A stretch of 14,528 nt of DNA from a virus. Positions 5,739 to 7,352 of the stretch are shown here, piece by piece (position 1 is the stretch's first letter; every line of letters starts with the position of its first letter). The DNA lies in the UHGV virus genome UHGV-0197628; one strand, 5' to 3'. The notes below the pieces were generated by a model. It did no database searches. It saw nothing but the letters and a program-made list of their open reading frames with translations, and was not told the DNA's origin. Position numbers and translations under genes: made by a program.

Positions 5739-6293
5739 ATGCTTATTGGCTATGTACGTGTGTCAACAAATGACCAGAACACAGATCTACAACGTAATGC
5801 GCTGAACTGTGCAGGATGCGAGCTGATTTTTGAAGACAAGATAAGCGGTACAAAGTCCGAAAGGCCGGGACTGAAAAAACTGCTCAGGACATTATCGGCA
5901 GGTGACACTCTGGTTGTCTGGAAGCTGGATCGGCTGGGGCGCAGTATGCGGCATCTGGTCATTCTGGTTGAGGAGTTGCGCGAACGTGGCGTTAATTTTC
6001 GCAGCCTGACGGATGCTATTGATACCAGTACCCCAATGGGGCGCTTTTTCTTTCATGTGATGGGGGCCCTGGCTGAAATGGAACGAGAACTGATTGTTGA
6101 ACGAACAAAAGCTGGACTGGAAGCTGCTCGCGCACAGGGACGAATTGGTGGACGTCGTCCCAAACTTACACAAGAACAATGGGCGCAGGCCGGGCGATTA
6201 ATTGCATCAGGCGTTCCTCGCCAGAAGGTGGCGATCATCTATGATGTTGGTATATCGACACTGTATAAGAAGTTTCCGGTCGGAGATAAATGA
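5739..6293 (+). CDS. pin: Serine DNA invertase, Pin/Gin/Hin/Cin family
   Basis: 184-aa product from ATG 5739 (MLIGYVRVSTNDQNTDLQRNALN...). It has the N-terminal catalytic-serine motif (YVRVSTNDQ) and a C-terminal helix-turn-helix region (...GRRPKLT..QKVAIIYDVGISTLYKKF), and is near-identical in character to E. coli PinE as I recall it. The 12 extra N-terminal codons in the ORF track (from 5703) were rejected. Confidence 0.9.
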   Translation: MLIGYVRVSTNDQNTDLQRNALNCAGCELIFEDKISGTKSERPGLKKLLRTLSAGDTLVVWKLDRLGRSMRHLVILVEELRERGVNFRSLTDAIDTSTPMGRFFFHVMGALAEMERELIVERTKAGLEAARAQGRIGGRRPKLTQEQWAQAGRLIASGVPRQKVAIIYDVGISTLYKKFPVGDK

Positions 6294-6334
6294 AACCGTA
6301 GCACGTCGTATGCAAGAAGATCGTGCTGCGGTTT
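6293..6334. terminator. Bidirectional terminator-like hairpin between convergent pin and the GIY-YIG gene (repeat copy A)
   Basis: 13-bp stem (aaaccgtagcacg / cgtgctgcggttt, one G-U pair) with a 16-nt loop. It starts at the last base of the pin stop codon and ends 20 nt beyond the stop of the minus-strand gene. Flanks are moderately T-rich on both strands. Confidence 0.55.
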
Positions 6335-6353
6335 ATGCTTATCACTTAAAGAC

Positions 6354-7127
6354 TCAAAAATTAGGTGAGTAACGGACCGGGGACATAGCTCCTTTTTTTC
6401 TTAATTCATCTGGTATTTTTTTTCCAAGATAAAGATTTGCTATTTCAGGTGGGGCTTCTCGACCTTCAAAACCATAGCGAGAACTTTGTGTTGCCTCAAA
6501 GTCCGGATCCTCGTCCCAGTATTTCATCGTAGGGAAATTTTCACGTGTTGATTTGAGCCATTTATCAGCAATGAAAACCCCTCGAACGATCCCCCTTACA
6601 GTAGCAAGAATGACTTCTGCTTGGCTGGCGCGAGAGACATTAATGCGCCAGCTAAATCGAACCGCATCATAAAGCTCTGAATCCTTTGCACTTCTGTTAA
6701 CGGAAATCATTAATGCTTTATGATGAAATGTTATGGTTTCGGGTTGATATGTTGCTATCAACTCTTTGACATGCGCGGCGCCGAATTCATTGCTGCCAGC
6801 ACCATTCATGATATTCGTTAACCCAGGGTAGGCATCAATAAGTGCTGCTTCAACTTCGTACGCCGTCTTTTCATCAGTCATTCCATGTCGATGGATGACA
6901 TGGATAACCTCAAGTCCTGCTAACCTTATTTCTCTAATTTGCTTTAGCTTGTTGCTCAGTAACTCGTCATCATCAGTCGCTGCCACTTCACCGCGCATAT
7001 GGGCAAATACGCGGTTACCTTTGCCTTTCCCTACATAGAAGGTGCTTCCGTCCCTCGGATCAATCAATCGGTATACATACCAGCCAAGGTGTTCAATTAC
7101 TCCAGAAGGAAACTCAGTAATATCCAT
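6354..7127 (-). CDS. GIY-YIG-motif nuclease-like protein with an uncharacterised C-terminal domain (candidate defence gene)
   Basis: 257-aa product from ATG 7125-7127 ([43 protein letters not shown]...). Residues 16-21 (WYVYRL) and 30-35 (FYVGKG) have GIY-YIG spacing, followed by R/H/E residues. The upstream TTG start of the track ORF (7178) was rejected. The gene is AT-rich relative to the tail module. Confidence 0.65.
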
Positions 7128-7312
7128 TTTGCAATATCTATGAATTATTTGTGAGACGTATATTAATGAACATTGCAAGGGCTCACAACCAGTAGTGTTG
7201 AGAAAACTATCGGGTAAATGAGGCTAATCCTTTGAATTTACATAGTAAAAAAAGATACTTTTCCTCATAGTGTGAGCTAATTTTATGTTTCGTTTGATGA
7301 TCGGACCGGTCT

Positions 7313-7352
7313 CAAAAACCGCAGGCACGTTGTATGCAAGAACGTGCTGTGG
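7313..7352 (-). terminator. Rho-independent terminator-like hairpin on the minus strand (repeat copy B), downstream of the FRG-motif gene
   Basis: Stem ccgcaggcacg / cgtgctgtgg (about 10 bp with one bulge) and loop ttgtatgcaagaa. On the minus strand it is followed by a UUUUUG run (plus-strand aaaaa at 7314-7318). Stem and loop are closely related to hairpin A (shared gtatgcaagaa loop). Confidence 0.5.

Follow-up and report, generated by a model that had tools for sequence, protein, structure and literature searches.

Much current work asks where prophages pick up defence and virulence genes and how they reshuffle them, and the known hotspots for such genes are defined by the genes that flank them. 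The viral genome UHGV-0197628, analysed here as a single stretch of 14,528 nt (the window), raises the question in another form. It represents the right-hand end of a prophage, in which two similar hairpins, A at 6293-6334 and B at 7319-7352, bracket a GIY-YIG nuclease gene. An initial annotation had read them as the ends of two gene-plus-terminator cassettes, A belonging to the GIY-YIG gene and B to an FRG-domain gene. Does each gene bring its own hairpin, or do the hairpins belong to something that the genes have joined? We found that B is the first stem-loop (SL1) of a structured element of about 105 nt, hereafter element E, and that A is an SL1-only copy of it. The boundary of the accessory genes here is a short structured non-coding element carried by almost all E. 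coli genomes and by lambda, with a covarying fold and a conserved loop, and reiterated between stacked cargo. The reading that we favour, with moderate confidence, is that E is a 3'-end hairpin module shared by convergent late and accessory transcription, and that its core doubles as portable homology for cassette exchange.

Two homologous hairpins bracket a predicted defence gene

Hairpin A pairs 6293-6305 (AAACCGTAGCACG) with 6322-6334 (CGTGCTGCGGTTT) through 13 pairs, one of them T.G, under a 16-nt loop that carries a GAT insertion relative to the family described below. In hairpin B, 7319-7329 (CCGCAGGCACG) pairs with 7343-7352 (CGTGCTGTGG), with one bulged G and one G.T pair, and the loop is 13 nt long. 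Both stems are G+C rich, 10 to 13 bp long, with computed energies of -15 to -26 kcal/mol, and A stands directly downstream of a gene. Both sequences folded, with z-scores of -5.35 on the + strand and -3.94 on the - strand for A, and of -3.01 and -0.74, respectively, for B.

The two hairpins share a 17/18-nt core, GCACGTYGTATGCAAGAA, present in the window only at 6301 and 7325, both times on the + strand. None of 200 shuffled sequences contained two matches to it, and a repeat search of the window listed the core as a repeat with 94% identity. A covariance model (R1) built from 110 copies of E from elsewhere recovered B (E-value 2e-31) and A (9e-6) with the bit scores listed below, and no other match had an E-value under 0.29; no third, diverged copy was found by the model at the right edge of the FRG cargo. 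The common core and the model scores indicate that A and B are homologous rather than independent terminators, as the initial annotation had proposed. Over about 41 shared nt, they differ at about five positions in addition to the GAT insertion. Being only about 85% alike, they are not a fresh duplication.

The annotation had also placed two flanking 8-mers, CGGACCGG and CTCAAAAA, in the shared element. They recur beside both hairpins, but the alignment score of the flanks was matched by 46 to 56 of 500 shuffles, as expected by chance. The window contains CGGACCGG four times; beside A, both 8-mers lie inside the coding end of the GIY-YIG gene, in reverse order, and the other allele of the B flank (CGGGTCGGTCTCGAAAC) has neither.

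Hairpin A lies between the convergent invertase and GIY-YIG genes. Its first base is the last base of the invertase TGA stop codon (6291-6293), 0 nt past the gene, and the stop codon of the GIY-YIG gene is 19 nt to its right. The FRG stop codon (7659) is 306 nt to the right of B. The annotated gene positions were therefore accurate, and so was the U-run after B on the minus strand (TTTTTGAG, or UUUUUGAG). A is followed by UUUAUGCUUAU on the + strand and UUUCAUUUAU on the - strand, being U-rich on both sides. The features of the region are as follows.

5703..6293, + strand: Pin/Gin-type serine DNA invertase (Pfam Resolvase, 1e-51, and HTH_7; annotated pinE in homologous loci)
6293..6334, no strand: hairpin A, SL1-only copy of E (covariance model 25.5 bits, E-value 9e-6)
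6354..7127, - strand: PD-T4-3 defence gene, predicted, coding for a LEM-3-like GIY-YIG nuclease of 257 amino acids (PADLOC PD-T4-3; Pfam LEM-3_GIY-YIG)
7128..7318, - strand: 5' non-coding part of the PD-T4-3 cassette, which accompanies the gene in all backbones
7314..7413, no strand: full element E, with SL1 (hairpin B, 7319-7352) and then a second stem-loop, SL2 (covariance model 113.9 bits; covariation in both stems)
7414..7515, no strand: conserved stretch right of E ('class ii' flank), partly common to lambda; homology among loci stops at 7506-7521
7659..8996, - strand: FRG-domain protein, variable cargo and candidate defence gene (Pfam FRG, 2e-22; PADLOC PDC-S15, 1e-98)
9235..9552, no strand: conserved right flank of the variable slot (92-96% identity across loci with different cargo)

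The GIY-YIG protein matched the PADLOC profile PD-T4-3 with an E-value of 2.4e-140, residues 1-256 aligning with positions 1-255 of 256. By this match, the gene is PD-T4-3, a predicted single-gene anti-phage defence gene. The profile and the RefSeq homologues of 774 bp place its start at ATG 7127, not at TTG 7178 as in the mechanically called open reading frame (ORF). A homing endonuclease was also considered, as jumbo-phage homologues with 40-45% identity are annotated as homing nucleases, but it was set aside on the full-length PD-T4-3 match and on an empty site that has an intact hairpin (see below). The cargo genes beside other copies of E are not relatives of the GIY-YIG gene. A scan of 7128-7318 called no promoter at its threshold; a putative cassette promoter may nevertheless lie there, by eye TTGTGA-17-TAATAT.

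Hairpin B is the first stem-loop of a widespread structured element

Similarity among loci extends about 70 nt to the right of B and defines E as SL1, SL2 and a short tail. SL1 has the conserved 13-nt loop YCGTATGCAAGAR. In SL2, 7355-7360 pairs with 7394-7399 (GGCTGG...CCAGCC) around the conserved TTCCAATAGTGCGAATATTGAAT, the stem enclosing TTCGATAGTGCGAGTATTGAATGA; GTTAYCGATTTTAC follows, and E ends with GTTATCGATTTTAC.

A blastn search with 7296-7420 hit 5,409 of the 5,426 complete E. coli genomes, at 16,560 places in all; the median genome had 3 such places, and none had more than 11. The same query matched 168 phage records, including lambda, phi80, HK106, HK633, mEp460, phiP27 and many Stx phages. 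The lambda copy is at 24162-24263, between ea47 and ea31. In a scan of one genome per species, E was present in Escherichia, Shigella, Citrobacter, Kluyvera and Pantoea.

Copies of E were taken twice from IMG/VR contigs, by a hairpin pattern and by a tail pattern, so that the tail-anchored set was not selected on the hairpin. Among 110 distinct tail-anchored copies, 85% of the cells at paired positions were paired, and double-sided changes occurred at 14 of 17 pairs. The observed values were reached in 0 of 500 shuffles, and sliding the partners by 1 to 3 columns reduced pairing to 18-55%. All 10 pairs of SL1 covary: columns 15-49 are CG in 82 copies and UA in 18, and columns 17-47 are GC in 83 and AU in 17. 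In SL2, pair 57-100 is GC in 80 copies and AU in 21. The loop motif TATGCA is at least 90% conserved while the stems vary, and the SL1 loop and SL2 interior are more strongly conserved than the stems. About 70% of the copies have an extrahelical base at a fixed position in the stem. An invariant core of about 22 bp, made of the inner stem and the loop, and the SL2 tail are conserved across otherwise unrelated phage backbones.

RefSeq/PGAP records place partial 'capsid protein' pseudogenes on E in several homologous loci (L001 6659-6733, L003 4733-4819, L009 4681-4761 and L014 4028-4093, equivalent to about 7330-7415 of the window). An ORF starting at the loop ATG has 8 to 29 codons in nearly all copies, with shifting frames. 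A coding explanation for E was ruled out on these grounds, and the pseudogene calls look spurious. One lambda record has a hypothetical ORF of 63 codons with a ribosome-binding site across E (L016 3934-4125, or lambda 24095-24286, minus strand); it is not conserved, since the same frame stops after 12 codons in the window.

An Rfam search of the window gave nothing at gathering thresholds, and at relaxed thresholds only the terminal hairpin of CssrB, a Shigella small RNA (sRNA) discussed below. In the open-access text, we found no named terminator of the lambda b region or late operon and no described flanking element of prophage hotspots that corresponds to E, while an older description may exist in the lambda literature. 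A preprint on Pas sRNAs was considered as a description of E and concerns other loci. E is thus a previously unnamed element outside all Rfam families. In a separate observation, Rfam IS009 (RF02111) matched at full score inside tfaQ (L012 2027-2225, L237 5345-5543 and L255 2650-2848), and this 'RNA gene' therefore overlaps a coding sequence.

E lies where late genes meet accessory cargo

In the loci that we inspected, SL1 starts 0 to 12 nt past the stop codon of the last late gene, among others the invertase (protein ending in FPVGDK), Tfa (ending in PDIEWPEEPDTM) or an Stf of the phi80/HK type. The far side of E is occupied by cargo transcribed leftward, most often a DinI-like gene, whose stop codon is within about 25 nt of the tail of E in about 68 of about 150 full copies; the WESADEWFVH type abuts the tail. 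Two divergent DinI subfamilies each have their own covarying subtype of E. Other neighbours on this side are an integrase, lambda ea31/ea59, a SIR2-like gene, an HNH-AAA pair, a lipase, sitABCD, nleC and a diguanylate cyclase.

Each of the 14 annotated contexts examined is the end of a prophage's tail-fibre or cargo region, close to attR. The prophages concerned are inserted at ssrA, tRNA-Pro, prfC, ydfJ, lambda attB (bioA-ybhB) or near sit, and E is often internal, kilobases from the prophage end. K-12 has a full copy at the end of the cryptic prophage Qin, between ydfJ and ynfT (MG1655 about 1,632,440-1,632,570; L237 about 3440-3570), where RefSeq annotates nothing. One chromosomal copy, between ykgJ and ecpE (L002 9267-9368), is not part of an intact prophage; the dinI-like 3' remnant that follows identifies it as a fossil prophage end. 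In the HK633 record, the copy of E (L015 2517-2597, or HK633 20680-20760) is labelled attP and described as similar to the ykgJ/yagV intergenic region of MG1655. The HK633 copy and the ykgJ-ecpE fossil have a 36-nt identical run in common, suggesting that some phages may integrate into old copies of E.

Cargo changes at the edges of E

Strain 14EC007 (L001) has no PD-T4-3 gene. It shows the empty site, with one undivided E directly past the invertase stop codon, flanked on the left as A is and on the right as B is. Where the PD-T4-3 unit is present, it is 981-983 bp long in every locus, with an SL1-only copy on its left and a full or truncated copy on its right. Other loci are homologous to the window cassette from precisely the first base of hairpin A onwards, and the homology often breaks off within hairpin B. 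At least four upstream contexts of the unit are represented: pinE, lambdoid tfa at ssrA and lambda attB (L017, L020, L071), an acyltransferase at tRNA-Pro (L018) and a cro-like regulator (L019). In all these backbones, the hairpin has the 5' arm of its own locus, and the joint at the 3' base of SL1 reads ...CTGCGGTT/TA... (the slash marks the joint).

Among the invertase-linked copies, a single 5' arm (TAG in 13 of 17) is joined to any of three 3' arms, and the right flank comes in at least six versions, which points to crossovers inside or at the edge of SL1. Combinations of 5' and 3' arms yield T.G or A.C mismatches, as in A and elsewhere. We propose that the conserved core and tail would act as portable homology, crossovers in or beside SL1 moving, swapping and stacking cargo, likely through homologous recombination by host or phage recombinases. 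Such crossovers would leave PD-T4-3 between the SL1-only A and the full B, and would fill the next slot with FRG at this locus and with different defence genes at others.

Right of B, the loci cease to be homologous at about 7510, at the end of the 'class ii' flank, which forms the left edge of the variable slot and resembles the lambda flank (L016); homology resumes at about 9235. At other loci (L002-L009, among others), this slot holds the retron Ec67 reverse transcriptase, an OLD-like nuclease, a lipase, an HNH protein, AraC, Dcm with a type II restriction enzyme, or a Septu-like pair. Copies of E in the same orientation also bracket unrelated cargo at L011, L134/L103 (three in a row), L109, L058/L044 and L096/L019.

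The initial annotation, in which each defence gene ends with its own copy of the hairpin, needs correcting in detail while being largely right in spirit. The search of other genomes revealed many copies with different cargo swapped beside them at the cassette joints of many prophages, and the PD-T4-3 gene does move as a unit bounded by hairpin copies. B, by contrast, is the 5' part of a resident element of about 105 nt and not FRG's own terminator, since E is present at the same place whether the cargo is a retron, a nuclease, a lipase or a restriction-modification system. That the cassette ends are simple terminators is less well borne out, for reasons given below.

Two other ways of moving cargo were rejected. 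Chi was considered as a driver of recombination: E has a near-Chi resembling GCTGGTGA, and the window has no exact Chi. A transposon-like insertion, with end hairpins and target duplication of the IS200/IS605 type, does not fit either, as the empty site keeps one hairpin, the repeat search gave no terminal inverted repeats and the copies are only about 85% alike.

In behaviour, the locus resembles a series of morons stacked in the defence hotspot of a prophage. Morons, a concept of Juhala and Hendrix, are reportedly accessory genes of lambdoid phages that have their own promoter and terminator and are inserted between phage genes. PD-T4-3 is similarly placed between sequences that are contiguous in L001, is oriented against late transcription and ends with a hairpin. 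Base composition shifts as in a moron: the late genes have a G+C content of 0.58 (baseplate genes 0.56-0.59) and the accessory genes one of 0.36-0.43 (PD-T4-3 0.43, FRG 0.36-0.38). Unlike those of morons, the successive 'terminators' are here homologous copies of one element that is older than the insertion and occurs in thousands of prophages. Defence hotspots have been described in P2 prophages and P4 satellites (Rousset et al. 2022, PMC9122126). Like them, the locus is a fixed prophage slot with conserved flanks and a strain-specific defence system. The flank is, however, a non-coding structured element of about 105 nt instead of a core gene, it is reiterated between stacked cargo, and the prophages are lambdoid or have Mu-like tails. 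E would account for the mosaic joints at PD-T4-3, and its covariance model can serve, at little cost and whatever the backbone, to locate accessory and defence cargo in such prophages. It also corrects the 'capsid protein' pseudogenes and the HK633 'attP' as annotation errors.

What E might do at these boundaries

E stands back-to-back with the end of the late tail-fibre/invertase operon and would form the common 3' end of the leftward units, whether DinI-like, integrase-proximal, or made of morons and defence genes. Its job would most likely be RNA 3'-end formation, by termination where a U-tract is present and otherwise as a protective 3' hairpin. E would in this way insulate the convergent late and accessory units from each other.

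Bidirectional intrinsic terminators occur between convergent genes, and A resembles them in lying between two such genes with A/U-rich flanks on both sides. With U-rich sequence on both strands and a fold of -26 kcal/mol on the + strand, A could plausibly act in both directions and terminate the invertase and PD-T4-3 transcripts alike. B, whose stem is followed by UUUUUGAG on the minus strand, could plausibly terminate leftward transcripts coming from the FRG side. Over the family, the 9 nt after the stem contain on average 3.9 T on the minus strand versus 2.75 on the plus strand, many copies having two or fewer. In Shigella, the sRNA CssrB, which has been detected by Northern blotting, ends in a hairpin homologous to SL1.

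Several observations weigh against this reading. The loop of SL1, 13 to 16 nt long, exceeds the 3 to 8 nt or so of intrinsic terminators and is conserved in sequence, and a terminator consensus scan called neither A nor B. Full copies have no U-tract after SL1 on the + strand (GGYTGGCTGG), the commonest DinI-linked variant (GGAAGCCGCAG) has almost none on the minus strand, and the 3' end of CssrB was assigned by prediction only. E therefore meets the definition of an intrinsic terminator only partly. A simple terminator explains neither the sequence-conserved loop nor SL2, which suggest an additional, sequence-specific role. Nor is an acting strand singled out, since G.U and A.C mismatches both occur and mean hairpin stability is alike on the two strands (-19.5 and -18.8 kcal/mol).

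The proposed exchange has its own difficulties. Recombination is deduced from mosaic joints in the sequence, and 40-105 bp at 85-95% identity is short for RecA. In some lineages, B is truncated with no obvious consequence (L021 at about 5161-5184 and L007 at about 4722, corresponding to 7324-7337 of the window). In L021, the lineage with Dcm and type II restriction-modification, B is fused mid-loop to a dinI-like 3' remnant; in L007 (O157:H7), homology stops in the 5' arm of B, before an AraC regulator and insertion sequence remnants. On balance, the evolutionary role of E as a joint is better supported than its role at RNA 3' ends.

The conservation of the SL1 loop and SL2 interior above that of the stems would also be expected if E were a regulatory RNA, either the 3' untranslated region of the messenger RNA of an SOS-inducible DinI-like gene, processed to an sRNA, or a retroregulatory target similar to lambda sib, its position at cassette joints being a by-product. 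The two divergent DinI-like subfamilies keep E right after their stop codons with covarying stems, a LexA-box-like sequence precedes dinI in L011, and a structured region with a terminal hairpin and a minus-strand U-run is found in sRNAs derived from 3' untranslated regions. Many copies, however, have lost dinI, SL1-only copies have no SL2, the commonest DinI-linked variant is poor in minus-strand U, and the K-12 copy bears no annotation. The Rfam match is limited to the terminal hairpin of CssrB (RF02799), which is on the opposite strand, that of the late genes. In that model, the last 40 positions are the homologous SL1 hairpin; E matched only positions 141-180, with 24.5 and 15.2 bits, the other 140 nt being unmatched. 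With scores so far under the gathering threshold of 76, E is not a member of CssrB, and no full CssrB was found in four Shigella loci. The lambda sib/tI retroregulator is a structured element on the b-region side of attP, which is read by leftward transcripts and parted from int in the prophage. E is likewise structured and would be read by leftward transcripts, but lambda has its own sib near attP and a copy of E 3 kb further left, so E is not sib. We regard a regulatory RNA as unlikely, with some chance left to it.

A dedicated recombination site, similar to attC or att, would explain why same-orientation copies bracket cargo, with up to three per locus, and why the nucleotide at which PD-T4-3 joins is constant from backbone to backbone: the folded hairpin or the conserved tail would be the target of a recombinase, and the repeats would be site-specific products. 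The extrahelical base at a fixed stem position in about 70% of the copies, the attP label in HK633 and the ykgJ-ecpE fossil as a target with its 36-nt identical run are in line with this idea. Moreover, E is located about 70-280 nt from the integrase stop codon in HK633, and apparently, as read from the sequence, at other loci, which is where attP is expected.

Like integron attC sites, E places an imperfect hairpin in one orientation at each cassette boundary, with some extrahelical bases and variable cargo. Integrons differ in most other respects. The E loci have no IntI-type integrase, attI or attC core motifs (RYYYAAC...GTTRRRY), the joints reading CGGTT/GGCTGG or CGGTT/TATGCT on inspection, without GTTRRRY. 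The cassettes would have their own promoters and are in mixed orientations, the identity among E hairpins is far higher, and the loop sequence and a second stem-loop are conserved. The only candidate recombinases in the window are the serine invertase and a P4-type integrase; neither is next to E in lambdoid contexts, from which the invertase is absent. An attP or attR core would mark the prophage-host junction, with one integrase per site, whereas E accompanies unrelated integrases at the insertion sites named above and is often internal, kilobases from the end. Finally, the left copy at PD-T4-3 has no tail, unlike the product of an att-type duplication, and A and B are only about 85% identical. 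A dedicated site thus appears quite improbable.

More broadly, E might be an active organiser of accessory-gene arrays, either as a site for structure-specific recombination or insertion (the equivalent of attC in phages, possibly an attP as in HK633) or as a regulatory RNA with a partner that reads its loop. We hold this to be a minority reading, well behind that of a shared 3'-end module with portable homology. Whichever way it acts, E is a testable candidate for transcriptional insulation or guided recombination at the boundary between late operon and cargo.

The similarity of A and B cannot be put down to two independent terminators or to a generic REP-like repeat unlinked to cassettes. 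E is multi-copy in E. coli and has one copy, at ykgJ-ecpE, outside any intact prophage, and like REP/BIME sequences, which can stabilise messenger RNA, it is a short palindromic repeat at gene 3' ends. This explanation is nevertheless refuted by the absence of the core pair from all 200 shuffles, by the E-values of the covariance model, by the 14 prophage contexts out of 14, each beside a gene 3' end, and by the dinI-like remnant next to the exceptional copy; E has, moreover, another sequence than REP/BIME, a two-stem architecture and 1 to 11 copies per genome, all in prophage contexts, not hundreds scattered between core genes.

Surroundings of the locus

Mu-like baseplate and tail-fibre genes occupy 44-4650 of the window, followed by an invertible tail-fibre segment on the minus strand (4622-5712) and by the invertase, with which the tail-fibre (late) block ends. 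Shortly before the invertase gene, TTCTCCCAAACCAACATTTATGAAAA (about 5659-5684) resembles the crossover sites of invertases of the Gin/Pin/Cin type. A scan of the window for tRNA and tmRNA genes returned none.

The FRG gene and its flanks (7488-9105) are about 90% identical to Escherichia phage Tritos (OV696610.1, 33711-35322), in which the gene is annotated as hypothetical. The right flank of the variable slot (9235-9552) has about 88% identity to a stretch in phage 21 and lambda-hybrid records and may be an att-proximal arm.

Beyond this flank, profile matches in Pfam and PADLOC identified a P4-type integrase and then Hachiman (HamA, HamB) at 9663-14345. In other strains, the homologous integrase precedes other defence cargo, namely, ABC-three-component proteins, an OLD-like nuclease with a UvrD-like helicase, or a HEPN protein, and also psu. 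The integrase-Hachiman block looks like a second hotspot, of the P4-satellite type, that abuts the prophage end.

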